Notes: generated from the letters alone by a model not told the origin. Positions 2,598 to 36,830 are shown, numbered from the stretch's first letter. The stretch: DNA of 41,714 nt from Candidatus Eiseniibacteriota bacterium (GCA_043810925.1 JBDRNT010000034.1:1-41714); one strand, 5' to 3'. A program made the numbers and translations.

Positions 2598-5240
2598 CTA
2601 TCTGACCATGTTCACGGTCTTGGTCTTGACCCCGGCATCGGTCTCAAGCCGCATGAAATAGACACCGCTTGCCACGCGTCTACCCTCATCGTTTGTGCCG
2701 TCCCATGCCAGTTGCTGCCTGCCCGAATCCGCATAACGTGACTCGAGCGACTTCACCTTCCGCCCTGCCAGATCATAGACATCGAGTGAGACCTGAGACG
2801 GCCGCGAAAGCACAAATGTGATCGTAGTCGCGGCGCTGAAAGGATTCGGATAGTTGGCAAACCCGGTGACAATCCCCGGCTCCCGCGCATCGACTCCGCT
2901 TAAGTCCGGAAGCGTCGTGAGATCGAAGGAGTGCATCGACCGTCCATGCGTCCCGGCAACCAGCGTACGGCTCGGATTGTGGAGATTAAGGTCAAAGACC
3001 GGGACGGCCGGAAGCCCGGTCCCAAGCATCGACCATTCGGCGCCGGGCACCTCCGTGCAGTAACAGCCGACGTCGGTTCCCACAAAAAGCCGCGAGGGCT
3101 GGGCGGGATCCACCACGATCGCATTTACAGGTGCACCGGGGAGGTTCTCGGTAATATCAGTCCAGGATGCCCCGTAATTTTCGGTTCGATAGACATAGCC
3201 GATGTTCTCATCCCACCTGAGGCCCGAGAACGTCACATAGGCGATTCCAGGACCCGTGGGGTCCGTGGCAACACGCGTCACCCAGCGATTCGGGAGCGAA
3301 GCGGAAATGTTGGTCCAGTTGTCACCGCCGTTCTGCGTTACCCATACATTGGAGTCATCGGTACCGACATAAATCACATCGGGGTCGGCGGGTGAGACCG
3401 CGATTGTCGTGATCGTACCGAAGCCGGCACCCTGATCGCCGTTTGTCAGGTCACCGCTTATGGGATCCCACCAGTCGGCTCCGTCTGTCGACTGATAGAC
3501 CCTGTGGCTTCCATAGTAAAGCGTCAGGTGATCGGACGGATCCATCACCACGGGCGTCATCCAGTTTGTCCGGTCGTCGCCGTTGATACCGTCCAGGGCA
3601 TAGGTCCAGTTACCTGCGAAATTGGTCGACTTGTACAGATAGCCGTACTGGTACTCCGCATATATTATGTCGGAATCGGTCGGATCCACGATGGAGTAAA
3701 ACCCGTCACCACCCAGTATGTTTTCCCAATCGGAGGTCCCCCCCGTAGGGGTCCTGAGCGTACCGTTATCCTGCGTACCGCCGTAAAGCCGCGCCGGGTT
3801 AAGATAGTCGATCTCGATCGCATAGAACTGATTTGTAGGCTGGTCGTAGAGCTTGCTCCAGGACGTGCCGGAGCTTTGCGACACATAGATGCCGCCATCG
3901 TTCCCCTCGAAGATCCGGGTGTGGTCGTTGGGATCGAAGGCCATGGCGTGATGATCCACATGGTTGCTCGAGCCGACCTCGGACCAGGTGGAGCCACCGT
4001 TCTCCGAGCGGTAAAACGGCACACCCAGGGCAAAGACCCGGTTGGGATCGGCGGGATCGACCCTGATCTGTCCGAAGTACCAACCGAAGGAGCTATGGAT
4101 GTTCTCCAGCACCGCGTCATTGGTCCGCGTCCAGGAGTCACCACCGTTTGTCGACTTGTAGACCTGGGCATAGTAATACGGGCTCGGAATGTCATAAATG
4201 GCGTAGATCACATTGGGGCTCGAGGCGCAAACCGAAAGACCTATCCGGCCGACATCCGGGCCTGACGGCAGCCCGCTCGTAAGCTCCACCCACGTGTCCC
4301 CACCATCGTAGGACCGGTAGATGCCGCTTGTGACGCCACCCGACCTGCGATATGTGAGTCCGCGACGCCGTTCCCACATTGCGGCGAAGACGGTATCCGG
4401 TCTGGTGGGATCAATGGCAACATCAGTCCCGGCCGTTGAATCGCTGACCGAAAGCACGAGATCCCATGAGGACCCCGCGTCAGGCGAGCGATAGATCCCA
4501 CGCTCGGGATTGGTACCGAAGAGACTTCCCGTCCCTGCAACCCAGATCCGGTCCGTGTCCATCGGATCGATAACAATACGGGCGATATAGCGGGTCGCTT
4601 CGAGACCGATGTAGCTCCAGTTTGCTCCACTGTCAGTTGACTTATACATGCCCATGCCGAACCAGCTGAAACTCGGGGCATTGGCCTCACCTGTCCCGAC
4701 GTAGATAGTATTCGGAGACTCGGGATCAATGGCAATGGCTCCGATAGTAAGGACCGGCAGATCATCTGAAATCGGATCCCACGTGCTACCGCCGTCACCG
4801 GATCTGAAGACACCGCCGCTCGCCATCGCTGCATAGATGATATTGCTGTTGGTCGGATGAAACGCAAGGTCGGTCACCCGGGCACCGATGTTACTCGGTC
4901 CCTCCTCCACCCAACTCCCTGCGAGCGCGGCCTGTCCCCTCTTCGCCTCAAAACGTAGTGCCTGGGCCTCGGCCACGGCCTGCTTGAGCTGATCGTAGTC
5001 AATCAGCCCATAGGGATAGGCGCGCTGATTGAAGCCCCAGCCGCTCGGAAAGGCACCCGGCTCATAGCGCTTGCCCTCAGCCGCAAGCTCGGCCTTCATG
5101 TCCGCCTTGAGTTGGGCCGCTCTCTGAGTGACTTCCTCCCGGGTCAGACTGCCGCCCCGCTCGCCGGGTCTCTGGATAAACCAGAGAGCCGCGGCCGCGA
5201 CCACTACGACTAAGACCGTCAGCATCAATCTGCGCTTCAT
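2598..5240 (-). CDS. secreted Asp-box/BNR (Vps10/sortilin-like) beta-propeller protein, glycosyl-hydrolase-like, with C-terminal FlgD-Ig/T9SS-type domain
   Basis: N-terminal hydrophobic segment; about 11 SxDxGxxW-type repeats (RSGDGGSTW, KSTDSGANW, RSYDGGDTW...); GGTQDNG and GTHGRS motifs; tail NYPNPF...VYDLAGRKV...WDG...SGVYF; AGGAG RBS. Confidence 0.85.
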   Translation of the reverse strand: MKRRLMLTVLVVVVAAAALWFIQRPGERGGSLTREEVTQRAAQLKADMKAELAAEGKRYEPGAFPSGWGFNQRAYPYGLIDYDQLKQAVAEAQALRFEAKRGQAALAGSWVEEGPSNIGARVTDLAFHPTNSNIIYAAMASGGVFRSGDGGSTWDPISDDLPVLTIGAIAIDPESPNTIYVGTGEANAPSFSWFGMGMYKSTDSGANWSYIGLEATRYIARIVIDPMDTDRIWVAGTGSLFGTNPERGIYRSPDAGSSWDLVLSVSDSTAGTDVAIDPTRPDTVFAAMWERRRGLTYRRSGGVTSGIYRSYDGGDTWVELTSGLPSGPDVGRIGLSVCASSPNVIYAIYDIPSPYYYAQVYKSTNGGDSWTRTNDAVLENIHSSFGWYFGQIRVDPADPNRVFALGVPFYRSENGGSTWSEVGSSNHVDHHAMAFDPNDHTRIFEGNDGGIYVSQSSGTSWSKLYDQPTNQFYAIEIDYLNPARLYGGTQDNGTLRTPTGGTSDWENILGGDGFYSIVDPTDSDIIYAEYQYGYLYKSTNFAGNWTYALDGINGDDRTNWMTPVVMDPSDHLTLYYGSHRVYQSTDGADWWDPISGDLTNGDQGAGFGTITTIAVSPADPDVIYVGTDDSNVWVTQNGGDNWTNISASLPNRWVTRVATDPTGPGIAYVTFSGLRWDENIGYVYRTENYGASWTDITENLPGAPVNAIVVDPAQPSRLFVGTDVGCYCTEVPGAEWSMLGTGLPAVPVFDLNLHNPSRTLVAGTHGRSMHSFDLTTLPDLSGVDAREPGIVTGFANYPNPFSAATTITFVLSRPSQVSLDVYDLAGRKVKSLESRYADSGRQQLAWDGTNDEGRRVASGVYFMRLETDAGVKTKTVNMVR

Positions 5241-9899: not shown

Positions 9900-9940
9900 T
9901 TGACACGGCCTAATTCTATTATAAACTTACATTGTTTCAA
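9900..9940. promoter_or_regulatory. overlapping divergent sigma70-like promoters
   Basis: + strand TTGACA (9900-9905)-16 bp-TAAACT (9922-9927) facing the dehydrogenase operon; - strand TTGAAA (9940-9935)-16 bp-TAGAAT (9918-9913) facing the acetyltransferase. Confidence 0.45.
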
Positions 9941-10019: not shown

Positions 10020-11201
10020 ATGCCCAAGCACACAGTTGTTACGATGCCCGGCGACGGCATCGGCAAGGTTGTTCTTAAGGAGGGTCTGAAGTTGCTGGAT
10101 GCGGTCGGCTTCGAGGCCGACTATGTGTTCGCCGATATCGGATGGGAATTCTGGGTGACCGAGGGAAATCCTCTACCCAAGCGAACGCTTGATCTTCTGG
10201 AGAAGCACCGGCTGGGTCTCTTCGGAGCCATTACGTCCAAACCCAAGGATCAGGCGGCAAGTGAGCTGGCGCCCGAGCTCAAGGGAAAGGGCCACGTCTA
10301 CTATAGCCCCATCGTCGCTATGAGACAGTACTTCAATCTCGACCTCTGCATCCGGCCATGCAGGACATTCAAGGGTAATCCTCTTAACTTCGTAAGAAAG
10401 ACCAGGGATAGTTACGAAGAACCCGCAGTCGATGTGGTGGTATTCAGGCAGAACACGCAGGGGCTCTACGCAGGGGTTGAATGGACGAACCCGCCTCCCG
10501 AAGTCAGGAAGGCACTTGAAACTCACCCCAAGATGGCCGCCTTCAAGGACGTTCCCAGCGAGGACCTTGCCATCTCGACAAGGATCTTCTCCCGCGGGGC
10601 ATGTCACAGGATAATCGATGAGGGCTTTAAGTACGCCAGGAAATTCGACTATAAGTCCGTGACCATATGCGAGAAGCCGAACGTGATCCGCGAGACCTCG
10701 GGAATGATGCGTGAGGAAGCGCGGAAAATACATAAGGACTACCCCGACATTGCGCTGTGGGAAACCAACATCGATGCCCAGATGATGTGGCTCAACAAGA
10801 ATCCGGAAGACTACGGCGTGATCGTGAGCAGCAACATGTTCGGTGACATCGTTTCCGACGCTTTCGCCGGTCTGGTGGGTGGTCTGGGGTTCGCATGCAG
10901 CGCCAACGTGGGCAGGAACTGTGCGGTGTTTGAGCCCACTCACGGCTCGGCGCCCAAGTATGCCGATCTCGAACCTTCAATCGTAAATCCGATGGCGATG
11001 TTCTTAAGCAGTGCAATGATGCTCGATTACATCGGTGAAGAGAACAAGGCCAAGCGCATCAGAGATGCCATTGCCCGGGTGGTTGAAGAGGGCAAGATCC
11101 GGGCATATGACATGATGAAGCTTAAGGGCGGACCGGAAGTCCTGGGCCAGGGCGCAGCAAGCACCAGTCAGATCACCGATGCGGTGACAGCAAAACTGTA
11201 G
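10020..11201 (+). CDS. isocitrate/isopropylmalate/homoisocitrate dehydrogenase family enzyme, probably NADP-dependent
   Basis: [57 protein letters not shown] motifs; GGAGG/GAGGT RBS. Confidence 0.9.
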
Positions 11202-11221
11202 AGGCTTCTTGAGGAGGAATG

Positions 11222-13027
11222 ATGGGATCGACTCTTATCGAGAAGATAATCTCGGAGCACGCGGGCAAAAGCGCGAGGGCCGGGGATGTGGTGGACATGA
11301 GGATCGATGTTAGAATCGCCAGGGACTTTGGCGGGGCGAACGTGGTAAAGAACATCGAAGACCACGGACTTGGCATAGACAATCCCGAAGTCACCTTCTT
11401 CACCTTTGACTGCAATCCCACCGGGTCCGACCAGCGCTACGCGGCCAACCAGCAGCGAATCAGGCTGTTTGCCGCCAAACACAATGTCAAGGTCTATGAT
11501 ATTACTGAGGGGATCGGAACCCACATTGCTGTGGACGAAGGCCTGGTGGGCCCCGGCACGACCGTGGTTTCAACCGACTCCCATGCCAACATCGTCGGTG
11601 CAGTCGGTGCCTTCGGGCAGGGTATGGGCGACCAGGACATAGCCCATGCTTTCGCAAAGGGCCGTGTCTGGTTCAGGGTACCGCCGACAGTAAGAATAAC
11701 CATCGTGGGCCGCAGACCGGAGGGGACGACGGCCAAGGACGTCACCCTGGCGCTTCTTCAGAAGATTGGCGCGGGTGGACTTCTGGGTTTTGCAGCTGAA
11801 GTCTATGGTGAGGCCGCCGACGCGATGGATCTTTCCGAGAGGATCACCCTGGCCTCAATGGCTACTGAGATGGCCGGTATCATCATCCTTTTCCCGCCGA
11901 GCGAATCGGTGCTTTCAAAGCTTAAGGCCCTGACGGGAAAGACCTACACCGCCATCGCCGCTGACGCCGATGCCACATACGAGCGCGAGATAAAACTCGA
12001 TGTGAGCGATCTTAAGCCCCTGGTATCGCTGCCCGGCAATCCCGAAAACGTCGTGGCTCTGAGTGAAGTCATGGGGACCAGGATCCATTCGGGGTTTATC
12101 GGCTCGTGCACGAACGGCCGCTATGAGGACATGCTGGAGGCGGCACAGGTGCTCGAGGGCCGAAAGGTCGCACCCGGGGTCGTCCTAAAGATTGTCCCCG
12201 CAACCAACCGGATCTGGCGCAGGTGTCTTGAAGAGGGAATCATAAAGACGTTTAAGGATGCAGGCGCCCTTGTCGGCAACGCGGGCTGCGCGGGTTGTGC
12301 CGCCGGCCAGGTGGGCCAGAACGGCCCTGGTGAGATAACGATAAGCACAGGCAACCGCAATTTCCCCGGCAAGCAGGGCCAGGGCAAGGTCTATCTGGCA
12401 TCACCCGGGGTCGTGGCGGCATCGGCCGTTCGCGGCTTGATAGCGACACCGATGACGATCGATACGGATATCGCCGCGCGGGCGGCCGAGAAGGAGACGG
12501 CTGCCCAACCCAGACCCCAGCCGGCGGCCCAGCCGGCTACACCTCTCAAGGTCAAGGGTAAAGTGTGGGTGATCGCCGAAGACAACATAGACACGGACAT
12601 GATCTACCACAACAGGCACCTGGCCGTTACCGAAATCAGTGAGATGGGCAGTTACTGCTTCGGCAATCTCGAAGGCTGGAAGGACTTTCCCGCGAAAGTC
12701 AAGCCGGGTGATCTCGTCATAGTCGGCAGCAATTTCGGCTGCGGATCATCCCGGCAGCACGCCGTGGATTGCTTCAAGAGTCTGGGCGTCCAGGCGGTCA
12801 TCGCCAGGTCGTTCGGCGCCATCTACGAGCGAAATGCCATAAACGCAGGGCTTCCGATAGTGCAGGGAGATATCACAAGCCTTAAACTCAAGAATGGTGA
12901 TGTCATAAGCGTGGACTTCACAAGCGGCGAAGTGACAAGCGAAGCCACGGGCAAGAAGACCGACGTGAAGCCCTTCTCGGATGTTCAGCTTGAAATCTAC
13001 AAACGCGGCGGTCTGCTTTCCGGATAG
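11222..13027 (+). CDS. aconitase-family hydro-lyase, fused LeuC-like large and LeuD-like small subunits
   Basis: DSH, GSCTNGR, GCAGC (three Fe-S cysteines), STGNRNF, then a Pro/Ala/Gln linker and a swivel domain DNIDTD...NFGCGSSR; start may be 11219. Confidence 0.9.
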   Translation: MGSTLIEKIISEHAGKSARAGDVVDMRIDVRIARDFGGANVVKNIEDHGLGIDNPEVTFFTFDCNPTGSDQRYAANQQRIRLFAAKHNVKVYDITEGIGTHIAVDEGLVGPGTTVVSTDSHANIVGAVGAFGQGMGDQDIAHAFAKGRVWFRVPPTVRITIVGRRPEGTTAKDVTLALLQKIGAGGLLGFAAEVYGEAADAMDLSERITLASMATEMAGIIILFPPSESVLSKLKALTGKTYTAIAADADATYEREIKLDVSDLKPLVSLPGNPENVVALSEVMGTRIHSGFIGSCTNGRYEDMLEAAQVLEGRKVAPGVVLKIVPATNRIWRRCLEEGIIKTFKDAGALVGNAGCAGCAAGQVGQNGPGEITISTGNRNFPGKQGQGKVYLASPGVVAASAVRGLIATPMTIDTDIAARAAEKETAAQPRPQPAAQPATPLKVKGKVWVIAEDNIDTDMIYHNRHLAVTEISEMGSYCFGNLEGWKDFPAKVKPGDLVIVGSNFGCGSSRQHAVDCFKSLGVQAVIARSFGAIYERNAINAGLPIVQGDITSLKLKNGDVISVDFTSGEVTSEATGKKTDVKPFSDVQLEIYKRGGLLSG

Positions 13028-13035
13028 GAGGACAC

Positions 13036-14301
13036 ATGGGCCGGACATTTGCACAGAAACTGCTTGCCCTTAAAAGCGGCAAGAAGAGTGTTGATGTTAG
13101 TGAGATCGTTACCGTGAGACCAGATCATCTGTTAACACACGACAATACGGCTGCGATAATCTCAAAGATCGGCGATGAACTCAACACCTACGGTATCGCC
13201 GACACCGATATCCCGGTCATCGTCATCGACCACGTCGTACCCGCAAGCAACGAAAAGACGGCCGCCAACCACAAGAAGATAAGAGAGTTCGTGTCGAAGT
13301 TCGGTGTTAAGCATTTCTATGACGCCGGCCATGGCATCTGCCACCAGGTCCTGATCGCCGAAGGCCATGCTCTGCCGGGCTCGCTCATCGTGGGAAGCGA
13401 TTCACACACATGTACCTACGGGGCCGTCGGGGCGTTTGCCACCGGGATTGACAGGACCGAGGCGGCGTCAATTTTCTTAACGGGGCAGACCTGGCTTAAG
13501 GTCCCGCAGTCGATGAAGATAGAGGTCAAGGGTAGGCTCACAGGAGCAGCGTCGGCCAAGGATCTGATCTTAAGGATAATCGGTGACATCAGCGCGAGCG
13601 GAGCCAATTATCTTTCGGTTGAGTTTCACGGTGATACCGCGTCGCTAACGATTGAGGACCGGATGACCATCGCGAATATGGGTGTCGAGATGGGCGCGAA
13701 GAACGCCGTCTTCCCTGTCGATGAGGCTACCGGGGCGTTCTTGAAACAGGCGGGAGTGAGTTCGGCGTGGAAATCCGTCTGGGCGGATCCGGACGCGGAG
13801 TACATCAGGACTCTGACATACGATCTCGGCAAGATCGTGCCTACCGTCGCCAAGCCGCACAGCGTCGATAATTGTGTACCAGTCACCGAATTAGTTGGGC
13901 TTCCGATTGAGCAGTGTCTGATCGGCACATGCACCAACGGAAGGCTCGGAGACCTGCGCACAGCTGCGGCGATTCTTAAGGGCAAACAGGTTCACAAGAA
14001 CACCAGGCTCCTAATACTGCCTGCGAGCCGGGAAGTCATGCTTGAGGCACTCAAAGCGGGCATACTCCAGACCCTGATCGAAGCCGGCGGCATCGTTCTC
14101 CCGCCGGGCTGCGGTCCCTGCCTGGGAGCGCACCAGGGTGTGCTGGCTCCCGGCGAGAAATGCTTGAGTACGGCAAATCGTAACTTCAAGGGCAGAATGG
14201 GTTGTGTGGATGCTGAGATATACCTTGCGAGCCCCGCGACCGTAGCGGCGAGTGCAATCGAGGGAAGCGTAGTCGATCCGGGGAAGGTGGTAGACCTATG
14301 A
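13036..14301 (+). CDS. homoaconitase / 3-isopropylmalate dehydratase family large subunit
   Basis: THDN, IDH, GICHQ, GSDSHT, GTCTNGR, GCGPC, STANRNF, YLASP motifs; AGGAGG RBS. Confidence 0.9.
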   Translation: MGRTFAQKLLALKSGKKSVDVSEIVTVRPDHLLTHDNTAAIISKIGDELNTYGIADTDIPVIVIDHVVPASNEKTAANHKKIREFVSKFGVKHFYDAGHGICHQVLIAEGHALPGSLIVGSDSHTCTYGAVGAFATGIDRTEAASIFLTGQTWLKVPQSMKIEVKGRLTGAASAKDLILRIIGDISASGANYLSVEFHGDTASLTIEDRMTIANMGVEMGAKNAVFPVDEATGAFLKQAGVSSAWKSVWADPDAEYIRTLTYDLGKIVPTVAKPHSVDNCVPVTELVGLPIEQCLIGTCTNGRLGDLRTAAAILKGKQVHKNTRLLILPASREVMLEALKAGILQTLIEAGGIVLPPGCGPCLGAHQGVLAPGEKCLSTANRNFKGRMGCVDAEIYLASPATVAASAIEGSVVDPGKVVDL

Positions 14302-14789
14302 AGGTATGGAAGTATGATGATAATATAAATACCGATATGTTGTTTCCGGGCAAGTACACTTATACCTGTAGCACCGCCGAGGAGATAAGACCGCACCTGC
14401 TTGAGGACCTTGATCCGGATTTCGCAGGGCAGGCCCAGGCAGGGGATATCGTGATGGCAGGGGATAACTTCGGATGTGGGAGCTCGCGGGAGCAGCCGAC
14501 GGTGGGGCTTAAGGCAGTGGGGATCAAGGCAGTCGTCGCCCGGAGCTTCGCGAGAATCTTCTACAGGTCGGCAATAAACCAGGGGCTGATTCTGGTCGAG
14601 TGCCCGGAGGCTGTGGACGCCTACCATGAAAGTGACCCGGTTGACGTCGATCCCGAGGAAGGACTTATAACGGTGGCCGGCACGGAATTCAGGTTTCCGA
14701 AGCTGCCGCCGGAGATCATTGCCATCAGAGACGCTGGCGGTCTGCTTGCTTATGTTAGAAAAGAACTCACAGCCAGGGGGACGCGGTAA
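14298..14789 (+). CDS. homoaconitase / 3-isopropylmalate dehydratase family small subunit
   Basis: DNINTD-x3-PGKY, NFGCGSSREQ, SFARIFYR, GGL motifs; ATGA overlap with the large subunit. Confidence 0.9.
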   Translation: MKVWKYDDNINTDMLFPGKYTYTCSTAEEIRPHLLEDLDPDFAGQAQAGDIVMAGDNFGCGSSREQPTVGLKAVGIKAVVARSFARIFYRSAINQGLILVECPEAVDAYHESDPVDVDPEEGLITVAGTEFRFPKLPPEIIAIRDAGGLLAYVRKELTARGTR

Positions 14790-16000
14790 TGGCAAAAGGC
14801 GAAGCGGGGAAACGCGGAAAAGATGTCAGGTCGGATTGCTGGATTGCGATTGATAAGAAGAACTCCGGCGGCATCTCGCTTAAGGTGACATCGAAAGTCG
14901 AGAGCATGTACGGCGATTCGATCAGGGCAACGCTTGAAGAGGGGCTTAAGTTCTTCGGAATCAAGGATGCGACAGTGGAGCTGGAAGACCGGGGGGCTCT
15001 GCCGTTCGGGTTGATCGCACGCTTGGAAGCCGCGGTTAGAAGGCTTAATCCCGCTGAAGAGAAGCAACTCCTACCGGAGATGTTTTCGGAATGTACGTAC
15101 GCTACGACCCGGGAGAGGATGAGGCGCTCAAGGCTTTATCTCCCCGGTAACGAACCCAAGTTCGCGGTCAATGCCGGTATCCATCGTCCAGATGGCGTCA
15201 TTTTAGATCTCGAAGACAGCGTCCACCCTTCGGAGAAGGATGCAGCGCGCGTGATGGTGCGAAACGCACTAAGACAGGTTGATTTCATGGGTGCCGAACG
15301 CATGGTGCGAATAAACCAGGGCGAGATGGGTCTTCTGGATCTCGAGTTCGTGGTACCGCATAACGTCCATATCATCCTGATACCCAAGTGCGAAAGCGGC
15401 GAGGATGTGAAAACAGTCGACGCCAGGATCCAGGAGATAAGAAAACGCGAAAAGATCGATTCCGATGTGTTTCTTATGCCCATCGTCGAATCGGCTCTCG
15501 GGGCCTTGCGGGCGTATGAGATCGCGACGGCATCGCCCAGTACTGTAGCTCTAACCATAGGCCTTGAGGATTACACGGCAGATATCGGCACGCGGCGCAC
15601 AACCGAGGGGCGCGAGAGTTTCTGGGCACGCTCCCAGGTGGTAAACGCCGCGCGTGCCGCCAAGGTGCAGCCGATCGATACCGTGTTTTCCGATGTGCAG
15701 GACATGGATGGGCTTCGCGAGAGCGTGGTTGAAGCCAAGTCGCTCGGTTTCGAAGGTAAGGGCTGTATTCACCCCAGACAAATCGGTGTCATACATGAAG
15801 CCTTTGCGCCGGAGGATGCCGAGATCGAACGCGCAAAGCGGATCGTGCTCGCCTTCCAGGATGCCGAATCCAGGGGGCTTGGAGTGGTCTCACTCGGAAG
15901 CAAGATGATTGATCCTCCGGTCGTAAAGCGGGCACTCCACACCGTGGACCAGGCGATCGCTACAGGAAAGCTCGATGAGGATTGGAGGGACCAGAAATGA
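14789..16000 (+). CDS. citE: fused citrate-lyase acyl carrier (CitD-like) and citryl-CoA lyase beta (CitE-like) protein
   Basis: N-terminal ~90 aa CitD-like (SKVESMYG, DRGAL, IARLEAA); then RRSRLYLPG, LDLEDSV, VRIN, IPK, VESA, GLEDY, GKGCIHPRQ, MIDPP; TAATG overlap. Confidence 0.88.
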   Translation: MAKGEAGKRGKDVRSDCWIAIDKKNSGGISLKVTSKVESMYGDSIRATLEEGLKFFGIKDATVELEDRGALPFGLIARLEAAVRRLNPAEEKQLLPEMFSECTYATTRERMRRSRLYLPGNEPKFAVNAGIHRPDGVILDLEDSVHPSEKDAARVMVRNALRQVDFMGAERMVRINQGEMGLLDLEFVVPHNVHIILIPKCESGEDVKTVDARIQEIRKREKIDSDVFLMPIVESALGALRAYEIATASPSTVALTIGLEDYTADIGTRRTTEGRESFWARSQVVNAARAAKVQPIDTVFSDVQDMDGLRESVVEAKSLGFEGKGCIHPRQIGVIHEAFAPEDAEIERAKRIVLAFQDAESRGLGVVSLGSKMIDPPVVKRALHTVDQAIATGKLDEDWRDQK

Positions 16001-17556
16001 AAACCGATTCCGACCTTGTTCGAAATGCAGCCGGAAGGCTGGTTCCAACCGTCGCAAACGGAAAGGAACAGGTCCCTTACAAGGGCGTAGCCAAGTATAA
16101 GCCCGAAGGCACGAAGGCGGCCCCCCCTATCGCTTCATGCAGGGACTACCCGTCCGATGGTAACAAGGTGGTGAAGGACTTAAAGACCGCGCTTAAGGCC
16201 GCCGGGCTTAAGGACGGGATGACGATATCCACGCATCATCACCTCAGAGACGGCGACCTGGTCGCAAACATGATATTCGACATTGCAGCTGAGATGGGTG
16301 TTAAGGACCTGATGTGGTTTCCCAGCGCCTCCTTCCCCTGCCAGGCCAAGAACATCGACCACATGGATAGCGGTGTGATCCATCACATCGAAGGAAGTAT
16401 GAACGGTCCCCTTGGGCGCTACTGCTCCGAAGGTAAGATGCGAGGCATGGGAATGCTGAGGTCACACGGCGGCAGATACCAAGCCGTCCAGGACGGCGAG
16501 GTGCATATCGATATCGCCGTCATTGCGGCACCCACGTCCGATCCCTTCGGTAACTCAAACGGTCTCACCGGTCCCTCGGCCTGTGGTCTTCTGGGTTTCG
16601 CCCTGGCCGACTCACAGTATGCGGACAAGGTCATCGTTGTAACCGATAATCTCATTCCTTTCCCGTGCATTCCCTGGCAGATACAGGGCAACTATGTCGA
16701 CCATGTGGTAGTGGTGGATAAGCTCGGCGATCCTGAGAAGATCATCTCGGGGACGACGCAGATCACCCGGAGCCCAGACCGGCTCCTCATTGCCGAGATG
16801 ACCGCGCAGTTCGTCAGGGAAGCAGGACTCATCAAGGACGGCTTCTCCTTTCAGGCTGGTGCGGGCGGTACATCGCTAGCCTTCGCCATATTCTTAAAGG
16901 AAATGATGAAGGATGCGGGCGTGAAGGCGAGGTTCATACGTGCGGGGAGTACCAAGTATCAGGTTGAGATGCTCGAAGAGGGCCTCACCGACTATATCCT
17001 CGATGGCCAGACGTTTGATCTTGAGGGCATACGGTCGATGCGTGAGAACCCCGGTCATGTGTGGACGAGTCCGTTTACGAGCTACAACTATCACGGGAAG
17101 GGCAATTTCGCTTCGCTCTTAGATATCGTAATCCTCGGTGCCACCGAGGTCGATGTTAATTTCAACGCCAATGTCGTGACTCACTCCGATGGGCTTTTGC
17201 TTCACGGTATCGGCGGGTGGCAGAACTGCCTCTTCGGTAACTGCGTGATCCTACCCATCCCATCATTCAGAGACCGGATCCCGGTCCTGGTGGATGAGGT
17301 TACGACGCTTTGCGGTCCCGGGGAGTTGATAGATGTCATCATTACCGAACGCGGGATAGCGATAAATCCGCTCAGGAAGGATCTCCTCGATGCAGTCAAA
17401 GGATCCGATCTTCCGATAAGGTCGATCGAGGACTTAAAGGCCGGCGTCGAGAAACTCTGTGGCGGTAAGCCTCAAAAGCCGAAGTTTAAAGACAAGGTCG
17501 TGGCGGCAATCAAGTGGGTCGACGGGACCCTCATCGACTCCGTCCGCCAAGTCTAA
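15997..17556 (+). CDS. citF: citrate lyase alpha subunit / citrate CoA-transferase (CitF-like)
   Basis: LKDGMTISTHHHLRDGD, RSHGGR, FSFQAGAGG, LGATEVDVNFN, GIGG, TERGIAINP, VDGTLID; GGAGG RBS and ATGA overlap at 15997. Confidence 0.92.
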   Translation: MKTDSDLVRNAAGRLVPTVANGKEQVPYKGVAKYKPEGTKAAPPIASCRDYPSDGNKVVKDLKTALKAAGLKDGMTISTHHHLRDGDLVANMIFDIAAEMGVKDLMWFPSASFPCQAKNIDHMDSGVIHHIEGSMNGPLGRYCSEGKMRGMGMLRSHGGRYQAVQDGEVHIDIAVIAAPTSDPFGNSNGLTGPSACGLLGFALADSQYADKVIVVTDNLIPFPCIPWQIQGNYVDHVVVVDKLGDPEKIISGTTQITRSPDRLLIAEMTAQFVREAGLIKDGFSFQAGAGGTSLAFAIFLKEMMKDAGVKARFIRAGSTKYQVEMLEEGLTDYILDGQTFDLEGIRSMRENPGHVWTSPFTSYNYHGKGNFASLLDIVILGATEVDVNFNANVVTHSDGLLLHGIGGWQNCLFGNCVILPIPSFRDRIPVLVDEVTTLCGPGELIDVIITERGIAINPLRKDLLDAVKGSDLPIRSIEDLKAGVEKLCGGKPQKPKFKDKVVAAIKWVDGTLIDSVRQV

Positions 17557-18897: not shown

Positions 18898-19746
18898 TCA
18901 CCGGGACCGGGGCACGAGGTGGTAATTCTTTATGCGGTCGAGCCGATACACCTTCTCTCTTGCATCACCATGGCAAAACGCCGCCAGGTACACGATACCT
19001 CCGTAACCCAGGATCGCGCGCGGTGTGACTTCACGCGGCTCTTCGCCCTTTGTGCCTCCTGCGTAGACCATGACTATCCGATGCTTTTGCTGGATCGCAG
19101 AGGCGAGGTCCTCAAAACCGATGGGCGGTTTGGTCTCATAGATACGTGAGCTCTCAAACACGATGGGCTTTGAAAGGTTACCGAGATCCGCAATCGTCTT
19201 TACGCTGGCTGCCTCGGCGAGGAGCGTAAGGAAGACGTCCCTGGTCAGTCTTGCATCGGCCAGGGCGCGGTGTTTCTGCCCCATTGAAATCCCGAGCATG
19301 GTCGCCAGATTCACAAGGCTATAGCTCGGAAGGAGAGGCATCACAGCCTGAGCAAGCAACTTTGTGTCGAAGATCAGGTGGGTCGGGAACGCGAGCCCGA
19401 GCCGTATCAGATCCACACCGATAAAGCCTACGTCGAAGGGAGCGTTCTGAGCTATGAGGATGGTATCGGACGATCCGAGGAAGGCGAGGAAACGCGGCAT
19501 CACGGCTTCCACCGTGGGCTGGCCCCGGACCATCTGATTGGTTATGTGATTGACCTGCTGTACCTCGGGTGGAATATCGCTCTCAGGATCGATCAGCTGC
19601 TCAAACACCGCAATCTCATCCCCAGCGGCCGTAAAGCGGGTCGCACCGATTTCGACGAGTCTCGCCGACACGGGGTAGAGTCCAGTCGTCTCAGTATCAA
19701 ACGCGATGAAGGTGGCCTTATCCATCTCTAGGTCGGGTGTTGCCAT
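18898..19746 (-). CDS. DEDDh 3'-5' exonuclease (DnaQ-like) fused to a C-terminal WYL domain
   Basis: FDTETTG, QNAPFD, HRALADA; C-terminal Y...REVTP...YLAAFCH...YRLDRI; AGGAG RBS; TATAAT at 19772-19767 on -. Confidence 0.87.
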   Translation of the reverse strand: MATPDLEMDKATFIAFDTETTGLYPVSARLVEIGATRFTAAGDEIAVFEQLIDPESDIPPEVQQVNHITNQMVRGQPTVEAVMPRFLAFLGSSDTILIAQNAPFDVGFIGVDLIRLGLAFPTHLIFDTKLLAQAVMPLLPSYSLVNLATMLGISMGQKHRALADARLTRDVFLTLLAEAASVKTIADLGNLSKPIVFESSRIYETKPPIGFEDLASAIQQKHRIVMVYAGGTKGEEPREVTPRAILGYGGIVYLAAFCHGDAREKVYRLDRIKNYHLVPRSR

Positions 19747-19820
19747 CAACGTGACTCCTGGTTGCTATTATACTAAGGTGATTATAACGAATCGCGGCTA
19801 CACTCTCCAGAGCAATATCG

Positions 19821-23818: not shown

Positions 23819-26155
23819 CTATCTCACATGCACGGTCTTTCGGGTAACCTTCCGGCTGCCAGCCTCAACCGCTACGAAGTAGATACCCGGGCCCAGGATC
23901 TCCCCCGCATGACCGGTTCCATCCCACGTGACCGCAAACTCGCCCGCCGGATACTCGCTATTCGCGAGTGATGCAACCTCCCGGCCCATAACATCGTGGA
24001 CCGTGATACGAACGCGTGTCCCCGCAGACAAGGTCAGACGAAGCGTGGCTGTCGCCGTGAAGGGATTCGGACGCCCCGGGCCCAGCCGGACCCTAAGACC
24101 TGCGTCACCAGCCTCCTCCCCACCCGAGCTGGCTACGCCTGCGTTCGCACCGGCGACCACAAGGGCGGGATCACCGTATAGGTTGAAATTATAGAGGTTC
24201 ATGTATTCGTAGACACCGTCCCAGCCATAGTTGGTATGAGCATCGAATTTGCCGTTATAGAGAGCATCCCCGACCTTGTCGCCCTCGGCGATCATGTAGC
24301 GGTTGAAGTCAAAACAAATCTGTTCGGTTCCGCCAGGGCTCGTCTTCCAGTCGCTCGAGACCGCAGCGGGTCTCGATGAACTCACAATGCCTGCCGAAGA
24401 TCCCCAGCCGGGAAGTGTCAGGAGATCGATACCGCAATTGCCGTAGGGATTGGGGTCGGGATAGCCGACGTTACAGGATATCGCGAACACGATCGACGGG
24501 TGATCGTCATCGAGGTTCGAGGTTGCCGCATGTATGAACTGGTAACTCACCATTTCACCATTACTCTGCTCAGGCACACCGTCACCATCGTCCCACTCCC
24601 AGACTGTTCTATAAGCACCGTCGGACCAACCGTGCCCCGACCAGTTAACGTAGGCATGTTCACCGGTTCTCCAGGCGGTGTTAAAGGCAGATTCGGAAAT
24701 CGGCGGCCAGGGATAGGGTGAGGTCATAACACCGGCCTGCTCGCTCATATGGGTCAGCGTCATGCCACCCATCAGCCCTGTCTCGATCGAATCCAGACAT
24801 GTGGTCCCATCGATGAACGGGTAGCCGCTATGGTTCTGGTTTTCGAAGAAGAGTATCGACCCCGCGCTCAGGGCGTTATTCTTCCATGCGCCCGTATCCT
24901 GCTCGAAGGTCACGAGTTTATCGAGGGTATACGTGATCCGGGCTGGACTGTTGACCGGAATACGCCCCACAGCGACTTCGGCCAGGAAATCCGGATCATC
25001 GTCACCGTATTCACCATGATAGCCGTCGCCGTCGGAATCCCATGAGACTGCATCCGGGAATGACAGATCGGCGAAGTAATAGTCATTGGGTGTACCGGGG
25101 GCTATGAGACCCGGATCGCTGGGATCGTAAACATGGTAGGTGGGGTCAGGGTAGCAGATACGCATGGGGACCGTCGCATAGTCACCGACAAAGAGCACGT
25201 ATTCGATTCCCCAGGTCAAATAGTAAGCCATGAGGAAGTTACGTATCTGTTCCGCGAGATCGACGCCCGGTTGGGTTGTGATCTCGGTGTCTGTCACAAG
25301 CACTGTCCGCAAGCCATAGCCCAGGCTGGCTTTCCAGGTCGGAAAATCCGAAGCCGTGATGGCACTTTCAAGACCGCTCGTCGTTATGATCACATAATCG
25401 TAGGTCTCGCTTTGCGGCAAGGGTTGCAGTCCATCAGACTCATAGAGTCCGGCGATCTCGTCATAGTTGGAAAAGAGTCCGGCAGCTTTCTCATCGGCGA
25501 CACGATCGTGAAGACGCCGGTTGATATCTTGCGCCTCAGCGCTACCGGCCACGGGCAGGTCATAGGTGATCACAACACTAACTTCACTATGGTAGTCCAG
25601 CCGGCCTGACTCGGGATAGTACGTAAACGGGCAGAAGGCAACCGATGCATAAGCGTACTTACGGAGCGTACCTCGTTCGGCAAGCCACGCTACATCGCTG
25701 GGAAATGGACTATCCGAAAAGTATACAGATTCGTGCTTGGTCTCCCACTCCCTACCCATCCGCTCCATCGCCTCATCATGCCGGGGCATTCCCGGCAGCA
25801 TCATGATCTGCGGGAAGGGCTCAATCTCATAGACATCGGGAAGCTGAACCGTCTCGGCCGTAACGACGTCAACCGACAACGCCCTGGCACCCGGCGGCAG
25901 GGCAATCAGGAAGCGCTCCATCGGCAGCCGGGGGCTCCCCGGCACCATAAGATGGCCGAAGCCCTCCATCTCGATCCGAGAACCACCTGTTTCCTGGCTT
26001 ACCTGATAGGCACCGCTACGCAGCGTTGCGGTCGCCCGGCCTTCACCGATCGAAAAATCCGCAACGGCCGCCCGGCCGGCACCCAACGCGGAAGCGGTCC
26101 AGGCGATCACTACGGCAAGAACAAGCATCCACGCAGTCGCTGTCAAGCGTCTCAT
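23819..26155 (-). CDS. peptidase C25 (gingipain family) with propeptide and C-terminal FlgD-Ig/T9SS-type domain
   Basis: signal peptide; PGSPRLP propeptide; YVIIT, YVLFVGD, DYYFAD, VGRIP, catalytic SGHG and ISC, NLYGDP; PNPF...WDG...GIYF tail. Confidence 0.9.
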   Translation of the reverse strand: MRRLTATAWMLVLAVVIAWTASALGAGRAAVADFSIGEGRATATLRSGAYQVSQETGGSRIEMEGFGHLMVPGSPRLPMERFLIALPPGARALSVDVVTAETVQLPDVYEIEPFPQIMMLPGMPRHDEAMERMGREWETKHESVYFSDSPFPSDVAWLAERGTLRKYAYASVAFCPFTYYPESGRLDYHSEVSVVITYDLPVAGSAEAQDINRRLHDRVADEKAAGLFSNYDEIAGLYESDGLQPLPQSETYDYVIITTSGLESAITASDFPTWKASLGYGLRTVLVTDTEITTQPGVDLAEQIRNFLMAYYLTWGIEYVLFVGDYATVPMRICYPDPTYHVYDPSDPGLIAPGTPNDYYFADLSFPDAVSWDSDGDGYHGEYGDDDPDFLAEVAVGRIPVNSPARITYTLDKLVTFEQDTGAWKNNALSAGSILFFENQNHSGYPFIDGTTCLDSIETGLMGGMTLTHMSEQAGVMTSPYPWPPISESAFNTAWRTGEHAYVNWSGHGWSDGAYRTVWEWDDGDGVPEQSNGEMVSYQFIHAATSNLDDDHPSIVFAISCNVGYPDPNPYGNCGIDLLTLPGWGSSAGIVSSSRPAAVSSDWKTSPGGTEQICFDFNRYMIAEGDKVGDALYNGKFDAHTNYGWDGVYEYMNLYNFNLYGDPALVVAGANAGVASSGGEEAGDAGLRVRLGPGRPNPFTATATLRLTLSAGTRVRITVHDVMGREVASLANSEYPAGEFAVTWDGTGHAGEILGPGIYFVAVEAGSRKVTRKTVHVR

Positions 26156-26193
26156 CGGATCCCCCAATGGTTTTGGGTACGCAATACACCTAT

Positions 26194-27773: not shown

Positions 27774-28877
27774 TTGAAGAAAATAGTAATCATAGTGGTA
27801 GTAGTCGTGGTGGTCGCGGTCGTACTCTTTGGAGTCCTGCGCGGTAGGAAAACCGAGATACCCGACGTCCGGATAGTAGCTGTTGAGAGGGGGACTATTA
27901 CCAAGGCTGTGGTTGCGACAGGAGAGATACGGCCTCTCGCGGTGGCGGAAGTGAAATCGAAGATAGGCGGTGTGGTCCGGAGGTTCTACGTCGAGGAAGG
28001 TGACGTGGTCGGGAAGGGACAGAAGCTCGCTGAGATCGTGCCATCCGCTACACCCGGAGAGCTTGTCTATGCCAGGGAGAAGGTTAAGACCGTAAAACTC
28101 CAGCTCGAACGATCCGAGCGGAGGCTCGGGCGCCTGGAGGATCTTGCGGATAAGAAACTGATTTCCCTCGAGGAAGTCGAGGAGGCGGAGACCGAGCTCT
28201 CGATAGATGCGGCCCGCTACGATGCTGCACTTGCGGAACTGCAGGTGCTCGAACAGGGCTCGTCCGGAAAGAGTATCAGCCAGGCGGCCGCCGGCTCTCA
28301 GACCGCAGATGCGCTGATCGACATGATCGTCACATCGCCGATCTCCGGCATAGTGCTCTCACGGAACGTCGATGAGGGCTCCGCTGTGATACCCGTCTCG
28401 TCGGCATACGGCGGCACAAGTCTTCTCACCCTTGCCGATGTATCGAAGATGCATTTCGAGGGGAATGTCGATGAGAGCGATGTGGCAAAGATAACCGCCG
28501 GGATGCCTGCAAAGATATTCGTGGATGCATTCCCGGATACCGTCTTCGATGGCCTGCTTACCAGGATTGCCCCGCAGGGCCTCATGGAAGAAGGCGTTGT
28601 GAACTTCAGTGTAAAGGCCGAGCTTACGACCCACACGAATCTCTTAAGGACAGGCATGTCCGCGGATGTCCAGCTCGTCCTCGACGAACGCCACGACGTA
28701 CTCACGGTCCCTGAAGGAGCAGTTATCTACGAGGCTGACAGTACCTTCGTCGAACGCGTCGATGCGACGACAGAGGCAGGAAAAAAGCGCGTGCCCGTCA
28801 CGGTGGGCCTGAGTGACGGCATCAAGACAGAGATCATCAGCGGTCTCTCCGAGGGTGAGGAACTGGTTCTGCAATGA
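27774..28877 (+). CDS. membrane fusion / periplasmic adaptor protein (MacA-like)
   Basis: N-terminal TM; V-EGDVV-KGQ-L lipoyl half, helical hairpin, SPISG, VDESD, GMSA, ISGL-EGE; TTG start after AGGAGG. Confidence 0.9.
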   Translation: MKKIVIIVVVVVVVAVVLFGVLRGRKTEIPDVRIVAVERGTITKAVVATGEIRPLAVAEVKSKIGGVVRRFYVEEGDVVGKGQKLAEIVPSATPGELVYAREKVKTVKLQLERSERRLGRLEDLADKKLISLEEVEEAETELSIDAARYDAALAELQVLEQGSSGKSISQAAAGSQTADALIDMIVTSPISGIVLSRNVDEGSAVIPVSSAYGGTSLLTLADVSKMHFEGNVDESDVAKITAGMPAKIFVDAFPDTVFDGLLTRIAPQGLMEEGVVNFSVKAELTTHTNLLRTGMSADVQLVLDERHDVLTVPEGAVIYEADSTFVERVDATTEAGKKRVPVTVGLSDGIKTEIISGLSEGEELVLQ

Positions 28878-35600: not shown

Positions 35601-36822
35601 ATCGCAGTGCCTCTCCGGGATCGGTTCTGGCAGCCCGTCTTGCGGGATAGTAACCCGACGCCACACCTACCACCCCGGCCACCCCAACAGCCACAAGAAT
35701 GTGCAACACGTTTATGGCGGTCCGCCACGCGGCGTATCCGGCCACAGCCGCTGACAGACCTATCCCCACACCGATACCCACGACACAGCCTACCAGACTG
35801 AGCGCAATAGCCTCAATCAGGAACTGAAGCAGGACCGCATGGGAGGTCGCGCCCGCTGCCCGTCTTACGCCAATCTCATGGCGCCGCTCAAGCACAGTGG
35901 CGAGCATGATGTTCATGATGCCGATTCCGCCCACGAGAAGACTTATGCCGGCAATTGCTCCCATGACTATGTTAAACGTCCGCTGCGTACGCTGGCTTTG
36001 TTGAAGCAATGCCTGGGGTACGATCAGTCTGAAGTCTTTGTTGTCACCATGGAGCCGCTCAAGGCGTTTCTCGGCAAGCACCGAAGCCGCCGGGACATCT
36101 CCTGAACCCGCGACCGCGATTACGACCTCATCAATGCTTTCATCCGGACGCGGGCCACGATCCCTGGTCCCCTCGAAGTCTCCGGCAGCCCGCAGGGGAA
36201 CAAACACCTGGGTGTTGTAGTGAGGCAGCTTAAGCCCGCTGACCCTCGACCTCCCGACCTTCTTATACTCGGAAACCCCTATCACCGTAAACCACGAATT
36301 CCCGATCTTGACCTGTTCACCGCAGGCATTGTCGAACGCAAATAGCGCCTTTTTAAGCGATGAACCAAGCACGCATACTCTGGCTCCGCCTGCATCATCG
36401 GCAGCATCAAGGAAGCGGCCGCTCTGGAGCTCCAGGTTGAGGATCGCCCGGAACGCAGGACTGGTGGCGACGACCTCAGCACGCACACGTCGCCCACCGG
36501 CCTGTACAACGCTTTCAGGATAGCGTCTCAGCGCGGCCCAGCCGGATACTATCTCAAGCGCTCCAAGCGCCCCGGCGTCCCGCATGACGAGACCTTCCGT
36601 GGTGCCGCCATCCCAGCTGCCTGATGCGTTTTCGACGAAGATCGTGTTGGCACCGAGAAGCTCTACCTGCTCGGTTGATTCCTTCCTGGCTCCCTCGCTT
36701 ATCGAGAGCATCGCCACTACAGCCCCGACTCCGAACACCACGCCAAGCGCGGTCAGGAAGGAACGAACCTTATTTGAGGCAAGCGAATGAAAAGCAATTG
36801 GAAAGACCTGGATCGGATGCAC
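35593..36822 (-). CDS. MacB/FtsX-type ABC permease
   Basis: RSFLTALGVVFGV, GRF, SLLVGGIGIMNIML, ERRHEIGVRRAAGA, YPARRAA, EALRYE. Confidence 0.92.
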   Translation of the reverse strand: MHPIQVFPIAFHSLASNKVRSFLTALGVVFGVGAVVAMLSISEGARKESTEQVELLGANTIFVENASGSWDGGTTEGLVMRDAGALGALEIVSGWAALRRYPESVVQAGGRRVRAEVVATSPAFRAILNLELQSGRFLDAADDAGGARVCVLGSSLKKALFAFDNACGEQVKIGNSWFTVIGVSEYKKVGRSRVSGLKLPHYNTQVFVPLRAAGDFEGTRDRGPRPDESIDEVVIAVAGSGDVPAASVLAEKRLERLHGDNKDFRLIVPQALLQQSQRTQRTFNIVMGAIAGISLLVGGIGIMNIMLATVLERRHEIGVRRAAGATSHAVLLQFLIEAIALSLVGCVVGIGVGIGLSAAVAGYAAWRTAINVLHILVAVGVAGVVGVASGYYPARRAARTDPGEALRYE

Positions 36823-36830
36823 TGCGTCCG

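Follow-up and report, generated by a model that had tools for sequence, protein, structure and literature searches.

A conserved operon joining 2-oxoacid elongation enzymes with citrate-lyase-type cleavage, and its tentative assignment to the homocitrate series

Which pathway is served by an operon in which a decarboxylating dehydrogenase and two aconitase-family enzymes are followed by the subunits of a citrate lyase? The question is raised by six genes at positions 10020-17556 of a contig from a Candidatus Eiseniibacteriota bacterium (GCA_043810925.1, JBDRNT010000034.1:1-41714), whose 41,714 nucleotides are here called the window; the assembly to which it belongs totals 3.85 Mb over 185 contigs, with a completeness of 91.7%. 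The window proteins were scored by Pfam and NCBIfam profile searches, and specificity was judged from NCBIfam equivalog scores and from PDB alignments with characterised enzymes, which also served for the comparison of residues. The operon is real and conserved, apparently undescribed, and we rate it as a variant joining 2-oxoacid elongation enzymes with a citrate-lyase-type cleavage; its chemistry we infer from the sequences, with measured confidence as to substrate and direction. The six genes would encode one self-contained pathway, in which a 2-oxo acid, CO2 and NADPH on one side are interconverted with acetate and the 2-oxo acid one step shorter on the other, and we take the homocitrate series as the most likely one, at a rough probability of 0.4. 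The genes are the following.

10020-11201, plus strand: gene 1, a beta-decarboxylating dehydrogenase (Pfam Iso_dh) of the family of isocitrate (ICDH), homoisocitrate (HICDH) and isopropylmalate (IPMDH) dehydrogenases, 393 amino acids (aa).
11219-13027, plus strand: gene 2, a fused aconitase-family protein with Pfam Aconitase and Aconitase_C in a single chain, 602 aa.
13036-14301, plus strand: gene 3, a LeuC/HacA-like large subunit (Pfam Aconitase), 421 aa.
14298-14789, plus strand: gene 4, a LeuD-like small subunit (Pfam Aconitase_C), 163 aa.
14789-16000, plus strand: gene 5, a CitD-type acyl carrier protein (ACP) domain fused to a CitE/HpcH lyase domain (Pfam and NCBIfam), 403 aa.
15982-17556, plus strand: gene 6, a CitF-type acyl-ACP:acid transferase (Pfam CitF), 524 aa counted from a TTG.

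An earlier note on this DNA had described six co-oriented and tightly packed genes, and the coordinates of the reading frames agree with it, the first two junctions being gaps of 17 and 8 bases and the other three overlaps of 4, 1 and 19. The two aconitase-family enzymes of that description are one fused protein (gene 2) and one split pair (genes 3 and 4), and its citrate-lyase subunits are a CitD-CitE fusion (CitDE) and CitF. Gene 1 is preceded by GGAGG, 8 bases before its ATG. The true start of gene 6 is probably the ATG at 15997 rather than the TTG at 15982, because this ATG overlaps the TGA stop of gene 5 in an ATGA and has a GGAGG upstream. The genes flanking the operon are divergent or convergent and unrelated to it, namely an arylamine N-acetyltransferase-like gene and a glycosyltransferase.

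The arrangement recurs well beyond this contig. A pattern scan with one genome per species returned at least 584 confirmed relatives, and the locus counts given below refer to the best 80 of them, whose CitDE loci were classified by tblastn with nine reference proteins. Within the phylum of the window the CitDE fusion is found in 16 of 18 genomes and a dehydrogenase homologue in all 18, the two genes sharing a contig in 11 of the 15 further genomes that have CitDE; in the nine of these with a whole dehydrogenase gene the start-to-start distance from dehydrogenase to CitDE is 4769-4937 bases, the window having 4769. The same gene order and flanks occur in a metagenome-assembled genome (MAG) labelled Candidatus Eisenbacteria (L010), the nearest named one among the matches listed, with 71-84% identity over the six proteins. 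The 80 loci span Ignavibacteria, KSB1, Eisenbacteria, WOR-3, Gemmatimonadota, Phycisphaerae, Acidobacteriota, Aminicenantes and others, and hold CitF in 65 cases, the dehydrogenase in 33 and a small HD-domain gene in 33. At least one partner gene accompanies CitDE in 58 loci, and the full set of dehydrogenase, both (de)hydratase slots, CitDE and CitF is present in 28. Among the 22 loci devoid of partners, 11 have less than 5 kb of upstream sequence; the genomes in which a partnerless CitDE has full 10-kb flanks contain a dehydrogenase homologue elsewhere in five of five cases (54-70% identity), and CitF lies elsewhere in the two such genomes that were checked. The gene arrangement is not due to chance, and the survey of other genomes proposed in the earlier note shows order and spacing to be kept inside the phylum and linkage across phyla.

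Each of the two (de)hydratase slots has two alternates. No locus holds both the LeuCD-like pair (13 loci) and a Lys4-type fused protein, about 656 aa long (29 loci); in the other slot the gene-2 type is found in 17 loci and PrpD in 36, a single locus, L073, having both. The combinations observed are LeuCD-like with gene-2 type in 9 loci, the 656-aa protein with PrpD in 26, with the gene-2 type in 1 and with both in 1. The Lys4-type protein of a Melioribacter-labelled locus (L032:5676-7649) passes the fungal-type homoaconitase equivalog TIGR00139 by a wide margin (876.7, cut-off 529.9), and its loop YPGKYTY compares with FPGKYTYT, the specificity loop of window gene 4; this GKYTY loop is common to the Lys4-type proteins of the sister clusters and to a relative without CitDE (G025, described below). 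We conclude that genes 3 and 4 would fill the homoaconitase slot and gene 2 the slot held elsewhere by PrpD, of which no homologue was found in the window's genome. Gene 2 is accordingly proposed to be a dehydratase of a tertiary hydroxy acid, a putative functional equivalent of PrpD.

Profile scores place these proteins in broad subfamilies. Gene 2 exceeds the subfamily models NF001614 (400.1, cut-off 385) and hacA_fam (386.2, cut-off 385.7) and fails to reach the aconitate hydratase model PRK07229 (311.3, cut-off 612) or the homoaconitase TIGR00139 (247.7, cut-off 529.9). It has a conserved loop HN(R)HLAVT, and its translation contains Cys-bearing stretches of the kind expected for an Fe-S cluster, whose ligands these cysteines presumably are. 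Gene 3 exceeds the subfamily cut-offs of NF001614 (533.1), hacA_fam (521.7) and IPMI_arch (510.5), and misses the equivalogs HacA_Meth (457.8, cut-off 550), LEU2 (448.6, cut-off 610.65) and TIGR00139 (301.1, cut-off 529.9), as well as PRK07229 (357.7, cut-off 612). Gene 4 scores 162.5 bits with LEUD_arch (cut-off 108.95) and misses leud (159.7, cut-off 245.85). Because all the window proteins lie below every NCBIfam equivalog cut-off, the view that the enzymes of the operon are not ordinary LeuB, LeuCD or ICDH is supported.

Gene 1 matches Pfam Iso_dh with 250.7 bits, and its top NCBIfam models are the homoisocitrate dehydrogenases of methanogens, AksF2 (252.6, cut-off 540) and AksF (244.4, cut-off 500); all the ICDH models are far from being reached (best 231.3, cut-off 510), and leuB scores 169.8 (cut-off 353.2). 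The top PDB matches are an NAD-dependent ICDH (6lky, 191 bits) and the Thermus HICDH, TtHICDH (170 bits). In the alignments the substrate loop of gene 1 reads S-P-I-V, compared with S-v-N-v in the NAD-dependent ICDH and G-a-I-r in TtHICDH, so gene 1 has the Ser of ICDH and shares with TtHICDH the Ile at the place of the ICDH Asn. The roles of these loop residues are known from the ICDH and HICDH literature, and the Asn of the ICDH loop binds the substrate. The dehydrogenase is probably NADP(H)-dependent, since its motif HGSAPKY is that of the Thermus ICDH 2d1c, which we take to be an NADP-using enzyme; the NAD-type ICDH and HICDH have HGSAPDI. The role proposed for gene 1 would be that of a homoisocitrate dehydrogenase or 2-oxoadipate reductive carboxylase.

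In gene 5 Pfam finds the ACP domain (MdcD/CitD) at residues 15-85 with 59.3 bits and HpcH_HpaI at residues 113-329 with 179.5 bits, and the two domains can be delimited as CitD-type ACP (residues 14-89) and CitE/HpcH (residues 110-392). The NCBIfam citE model TIGR01588 gives 270.5 (cut-off 443.4), with only the HpcH_HpaI family level being reached, and citD gives 59.9 (cut-off 63.5); the top PDB matches are malyl-CoA lyase and CLYBL. Canonical CitD carries its prosthetic group on the serine of a known motif, Ser14. The stretch R14-S15-D16-C17 of gene 5 is invariant in 22 of 22 sequences, and the citD model aligns residues 14-89 of gene 5 with its own positions 14-89, an alignment that does not fix to the residue the match of S15 to the canonical Ser14. 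Gene 6 matches Pfam CitF (457.9 bits, cut-off 27), with 400 bits to PDB 2hj0 and 378 bits to 1xr4. The helpers CitG, CitX and CitC (Citrate_ly_lig), whose absence from the window had been pointed out before, have no match in the whole 91.7% complete assembly, and CitG has none in five of five other carrier genomes, two of them complete chromosomes.

The absence of a synthase likewise extends from the window, where the earlier note had remarked on it, to the whole assembly. No isopropylmalate, homocitrate or citramalate synthase was found there, the sole HMGL-like match being the alpha subunit of an oxaloacetate decarboxylase on another contig, an OadA equivalog (TIGR01108, 772.1, cut-off 756.5). 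With the conserved module and the lack of any synthase in the genome, the suggestion that the lyase stands in the place of the synthase is supported. The genome has its own genes for the tricarboxylic acid (TCA) cycle, namely a citrate synthase (311 bits) and, on contig C38, an aconitase (PRK07229, 993.1, cut-off 612), together with a second Iso_dh gene below all cut-offs, and therefore the operon would not be needed for the housekeeping of citrate and isocitrate. As regards lysine, the window's genome has DapA (292 bits), and neither LysW nor a lysine-ketoglutarate reductase of the AlaDh_PNT_N type was found in it; the homocitrate-synthase-like and LysX proteins of a Melioribacter MAG gave no tblastn match either. 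The tie to lysine and aminoadipate metabolism that the note had drawn is thus not supported in this genome, nor was a saccharopine-dehydrogenase homologue found at any of the 80 loci, and a synthase-free biosynthetic entry to lysine is unlikely in this organism for the same reasons.

A further clue comes from relatives in which the lyase has been exchanged. Two genomes of the same class (G025 and G026, each 96% complete) have no CitDE, and no CitF or HMGL-like gene was found in either, yet they keep homologues of the dehydrogenase and of the gene-2 type with 48-53% identity. In G025, where the contig extends far enough, a full set of HD, LeuC-like, LeuD-like, dehydrogenase and gene-2-type genes is present at 45-53% identity, with the same motifs as in the window (GKYTYT, SPIV and HGSAPKY). 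Four genes, among them homologues of succinyl-CoA synthetase (SCS) and of citryl-CoA lyase (CCL), stand ahead of this module and form a tight operon with it, the gaps measuring 9, 17, 3 and 47 bases.

L108 12117-17541, minus strand: pre-module genes of G025, consisting of a 515-aa gene of unknown kind, SCS-like beta and alpha genes and the CCL homologue.

The beta-like gene scores 254 bits against SCS beta and 124 against the large subunit of citryl-CoA synthetase, with a weak Citrate_bind match as well, and the lyase has 216 bits to the citryl-CoA lyase 6hxp compared with about 60 bits to citrate synthases. A metagenome scan with the G025 lyase gave 24 loci of 36-100% identity. The HD gene directly follows the CCL homologue in 10 of these, another 10 end within 550 bases past the lyase, and hydratase, dehydrogenase or PrpD genes lie near it in 4. 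In the metagenome contigs (among L116-L139) the recurring CCL-HD pair shows 41-61% identity. The window's genome gave no tblastn match to CCL and has only an ordinary sucCD-like pair (40% identity). The isomerase and dehydrogenase module is thus coupled to either of two unrelated cleavage systems, and the HD protein goes with both.

The HD protein was considered as the loader of the carrier domain, a role that was dropped since its gene also follows the ACP-free CCL variant. The homologue in the window's genome (51% identity) is located away from the operon, on contig C35 at 28051-28614 (L095 8051-8614, minus strand), where its gene overlaps a DUF4438 gene at the latter's end, near genes for a subtilase and a pyruvate phosphate dikinase. 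No NCBIfam match was found for the L032 copy and no informative PDB relative for the copy of the window's genome.

We propose that the operon acts on the homocitrate series, 2-oxoadipate being converted with CO2 and NADPH through homoisocitrate, homoaconitate and homocitrate into 2-oxoglutarate and acetate. In the first step gene 1 would carboxylate 2-oxoadipate reductively to homoisocitrate, the reverse being an oxidative decarboxylation. Genes 3 and 4 would then interconvert homoisocitrate and cis-homoaconitate in the manner of Lys4-type homoaconitases, limited to that half of the isomerisation, and gene 2, in the place of PrpD, would interconvert cis-homoaconitate and homocitrate. Finally the CitD-CitE fusion and CitF would cleave homocitrate to acetate and 2-oxoglutarate by a citrate-lyase-like cycle of acyl thioesters. 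What favours this series is that the alternate hydratase passes TIGR00139, that the GKYTY loop is shared, that gene 1 has the HICDH-like Ile and that the citrate cycle has separate enzymes.

The need for two (de)hydratases may be explained by stereochemistry. Citrate (pro-3S)-lyase, as NCBIfam names it, and citryl-CoA lyase are si-type enzymes, the latter being related to si-citrate synthase. A si-type lyase would correspond to (S)-homocitrate, with the acetyl-derived arm placed where aconitase could not dehydrate it; a second dedicated dehydratase would be required for this reason, as in the methylcitrate cycle. A division of this kind has precedents: in the accessible text of Fazius et al. 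(PMC3556520), fungal homoaconitases only interconvert homoaconitate and homoisocitrate, the same limit is cited from earlier work for Thermus, with a second enzyme dehydrating homocitrate, and this two-enzyme isomerisation is likened to methylcitrate dehydratase plus aconitase.

As to direction, we judge cleavage to be more likely than building, by way of a leaning, because at the concentrations found in cells a lyase working without ATP tends towards cleavage and because gene 1 seems to be of the NADP(H) type. The thermodynamics of citrate lyase are such that the condensation of free acetate is not favoured at these concentrations.

In its widest form the proposal would describe a widespread 2-oxoacid chain-shortening pathway, corresponding to the first half of the aminoadipate pathway in reverse, passing through (S)- and not (R)-homocitrate and ending in a si-type lyase, either CitDEF or a citryl-CoA synthetase and lyase. 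It would lead from 2-oxoadipate to 2-oxoglutarate and acetate or acetyl-CoA with no need of oxygen or of the 2-oxoadipate dehydrogenase complex, its carrier would be loaded by means other than CitC, CitX and CitG, and the HD protein would have a new role in it. Taken with all these parts at once, we hold this version to be rather doubtful.

Several observations weigh against the homocitrate assignment. No window protein attains the NCBIfam equivalog cut-off for a homoisocitrate dehydrogenase or a homoaconitase; the homocitrate series named in the earlier note is supported only indirectly, by the TIGR00139 alternate, the GKYTY loop and the Ile of gene 1. In the PDB comparison gene 4 is nearer to the small subunit of the isopropylmalate/citramalate isomerase of M. 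jannaschii (134 bits) than to that of its homoaconitase (111 bits), and of the two loops of these subunits, YLVY in the isomerase and YLRT in the homoaconitase, the loop of gene 4 lacks the Arg of the latter; gene 1 has a Val where TtHICDH has an Arg after the Ile. Gene 6 is almost a canonical citF (NCBIfam 497.3, cut-off 501.45), the replacement lyase of G025 resembles a citrate-specific enzyme, and without CitC, CitG and CitX the carrier domain may not be loaded at all, or only by some other means. A dehydrogenase homologue with 57-58% identity is also found in two genomes devoid of CitDE, hence co-occurrence alone does not tie it to CitDEF. The source of the substrate poses another difficulty, as no origin of 2-oxoadipate was recognised in the window's genome, and its only good Sacchrp_dh match, on contig C37, adjoins a LysA-like decarboxylase. 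Beside the 80 loci a saccharopine-dehydrogenase homologue was found in none with three Sacchrp_dh proteins as queries, and no lysine enzyme figures in the 25 commonest of 153 Pfam families among 105 de-duplicated same-strand neighbours (left from 147 candidates after dropping same-family repeats and proteins above 850 aa). Finally, the complete Phycisphaerales chromosome G002, where neither a monomeric isocitrate dehydrogenase nor an HMGL-like gene was found, has no Iso_dh-family gene apart from that of the cluster dehydrogenase, which may act there on isocitrate, and in the KSB1 loci L015, L016 and L047 the LeuD-like gene is separated from CitDE by a malic enzyme gene; this enzyme and the OadA of the window's genome both fit oxaloacetate as product.

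The malic enzyme of these KSB1 loci is of the MaeB type with a PTA domain and has about 750 aa. The pair on C37 (51837-54754) consists of a LysA-like PLP decarboxylase (183.9 bits, lysA cut-off 297.9) followed by a 507-aa Sacchrp_dh_NADP protein with no NCBIfam match, and may be of the polyamine type or consist of two uncharacterised diamino-acid enzymes.

The citrate and citramalate series had been kept as alternatives from the start and remain so. In the citrate series, which we consider unlikely, the module would be a dedicated branch in which 2-oxoglutarate and CO2 pass through isocitrate, cis-aconitate and citrate to acetate and oxaloacetate, serving the fermentation of glutamate or 2-oxoglutarate or an unconventional segment of the reverse TCA cycle, or, run the other way, a second oxidative branch. 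The nearly canonical CitF with its 400 bits to 2hj0, the cluster dehydrogenase as sole Iso_dh gene of G002, and the malic enzyme of the KSB1 version with the OadA of the window's genome all agree with it, and in the accessible text of the Ignavibacterium album paper a citrate fermentation or an unconventional reverse TCA cycle was proposed for a CitF and a CitE-CitD fusion (PMC3362086). It explains poorly why each version of the cluster keeps two different (de)hydratases when for citrate one aconitase does both halves, and when the genomes examined already hold a canonical aconitase. Moreover, the hydratase alternate passes a homoaconitase equivalog and not an aconitase one, and the dehydrogenase lacks the Asn of the ICDH loop and lies below every ICDH cut-off.

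The same homocitrate chemistry might instead run in the building direction, from acetate or an acetyl thioester and 2-oxoglutarate through homocitrate to 2-oxoadipate, with the lyase acting as synthase and the product feeding an aminoadipate-type lysine synthesis or another end such as glutaryl-CoA. That no homocitrate synthase was found in the window's genome or in G002, G007, G025 and G026 is in line with this, as are the absence of DapA from two of five other carriers (the complete chromosome G002, and G005), the dapABD, asd and lysC genes reported missing in the accessible text of the I. album paper (PMC3362086), and the membership of the Lys4-type enzyme in the biosynthetic homoaconitase family; a synthetase and lyase pair such as that of G025 could moreover run backwards, yielding ATP. 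The direction is nonetheless distinctly unlikely, as the window's genome has DapA and lacks LysW, homocitrate synthase and LysX, and LysW is also missing from four of the five other carriers; in the fifth, the Melioribacter MAG, a homocitrate-synthase-like gene of its own lies between lysW and lysX. The unfavourable condensation of free acetate speaks against it too, and the dehydrogenase looks NADP-type when the solved HICDHs compared carry the NAD-type motif.

More doubtful still is a series of other alkyl-malates, in which 2-oxobutyrate and CO2 would give 3-methylmalate, citraconate and citramalate, cleaved to pyruvate and acetate; this would be a reversed citramalate pathway for threonine and methionine carbon, with the isopropylmalate series as a second candidate. 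An ACP-dependent citramalate lyase related to citrate lyase exists in Clostridium tetanomorphum, all the substrates are central metabolites, as suits a module devoid of conserved transport or feeder genes, and the argument of the si-type lyase for a second dehydratase would hold here as well. The resemblance of gene 4 to the isopropylmalate/citramalate isomerase small subunit would find its place in such a scheme, but its GKYTY(T) loop is polar, unlike the YLVY of the isomerase, and the alternate hydratase is a homoaconitase equivalog. Solved IPMDHs are not known to have the ICDH Ser at this position of the carboxylate-binding loop, and gene 1 keeps it.

That the operon is no joint pathway, but only the juxtaposition of ordinary genes of the leucine type with those of an ordinary citrate lyase, is very improbable, since, even if each family is common alone and the window proteins reach only subfamily-level models, no leuA, citC, citG or citX was found in the whole genome, order and spacing are kept across the phylum and linkage across phyla, and the module persists after the swap of lyase type.

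Some further features of the window and of the sister loci were recorded. In the 123-base divergent intergenic region before gene 1 there is one weak candidate promoter, in a consensus-level promoter and terminator scan that gave 7 promoter-type sites compared with 4.2 expected in shuffles.

9900-9927, plus strand: promoter-like site, TTGACA, 16 bases, TAAACT, with 10 of 12 consensus matches.

Elsewhere in the window, the minus strand encodes a secreted protein with Sortilin/Vps10 repeats (2598-5240) and a C25 (gingipain-family) peptidase with a propeptide domain (23819-26167), both containing FlgD_ig domains and one of them a Por_Secre_tail (type IX secretion); a WYL domain fused to an RNase T-type exonuclease domain is found at 18898-19749 (minus strand). 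Two MacB/FtsX-type efflux sets with HlyD-type adaptors occupy 27774-31390 (plus) and 34095-38003 (minus), the second alone having an outer-membrane factor gene. In Ignavibacteria loci (including L023, L029, L035, L054, L057, L072 and L078) reading frames of about 120 aa belonging to one family lie between operon genes, with 26 copies in 18 loci, and in several loci of this class Phd/YefM-YoeB pairs are located between PrpD and CitDE. The Melioribacter-labelled MAG G004 has at a contig end (L105 8083-10243) lysW (72.5 bits), the homocitrate-synthase-like gene (TIGR02146, 351 bits, cut-off 413.55) and lysX (332 bits) in a row, so that by homology this carrier of the lyase cluster also has an aminoadipate pathway of the LysW type. 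The cluster enzymes as the sole homoaconitase and HICDH candidates for this lysW operon were rejected, as separate LeuC-like and LeuB-like genes exist in that MAG.

In the open-access literature, to which our search was confined, neither the cluster nor a homocitrate lyase was found described. Current annotation splits the module into 'citrate lyase', 'isopropylmalate dehydratase' and 'isocitrate dehydrogenase'. If the homocitrate assignment is true, pathway maps lack a route of central carbon metabolism that is encoded by a gene set common in bacteria of sediments, soils and reactors, and the metabolism reconstructed for Ignavibacteria, Phycisphaerae, KSB1, Acidobacteriota and others would have to be revised. 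The assignment would also provide a second natural case, after methylcitrate, of a stereochemically forced split isomerase, a bacterial relative of the fungal Lys4, and a citrate-lyase-type carrier loaded by means not yet known. Since Melioribacter and Ignavibacterium are cultured carriers, direct testing is possible.

Among the known systems closest to the operon is the upper alpha-aminoadipate pathway of fungi and Thermus, in which homocitrate synthase is followed by aconitase with a Lys4/LysTU homoaconitase and by Lys12/HICDH, and which employs the same three families for isomerisation and oxidative decarboxylation. As in that pathway, according to the accessible text of PMC3556520, the isomerisation is split over two enzymes, and the sister clusters pass the Lys4-type homoaconitase equivalog. 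It differs in having a citrate-lyase- or citryl-CoA-lyase-type enzyme in the place of homocitrate synthase, and as first dehydratase a dedicated fused aconitase-family protein or PrpD instead of the aconitase of the TCA cycle; the dehydrogenase carries KY and not the NAD-type DI motif, no LysW-type lower pathway was found in the window's genome, and the direction is probably reversed.

The methylcitrate cycle offers the parallel of PrpD (36 of the 80 loci), or gene 2 as its stand-in, paired with an aconitase-family hydratase, that is, of a separate dehydratase for the arm closed to aconitase (discussion of PMC3556520, as far as accessible). The PrpD homologues of the clusters, however, reach no more than 69-91 bits with the prpD equivalogs (cut-offs 458-950), the cluster contains neither a methylcitrate synthase nor a methylisocitrate lyase, and the decarboxylating dehydrogenase that follows would by its chemistry be unusable for 2-methylisocitrate. 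With the reverse TCA cycle of Hydrogenobacter the relatives lacking CitDEF share the citryl-CoA synthetase and lyase homologues that precede the same module; such genes were not found in the window's genome, and the organisms look heterotrophic from the window genes.

The CitF and CitE-CitD fusion of Ignavibacterium album, IALB_1146/1147 (Liu et al. 2012, PMC3362086), have the same architecture as genes 5 and 6. In the accessible text of that paper the pair is taken as a citrate lyase and the neighbouring dehydrogenase, homoaconitase-like and PrpD genes are not mentioned, and that of the M. roseus paper only notes the lack of an ATP-citrate lyase (PMC3534657). Finally, the CitDEF of Klebsiella, E. 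coli and lactic acid bacteria shares with the operon CitF, the CitE domain and a CitD-type carrier domain. Unlike in these bacteria, CitD is here fused to a CitE of 270.5 bits, well below the equivalog cut-off of 443.4, CitC, CitX and CitG are missing, and the lyase is accompanied by a dehydrogenase and (de)hydratases in place of the citrate carrier or oxaloacetate decarboxylase genes of the classic loci.

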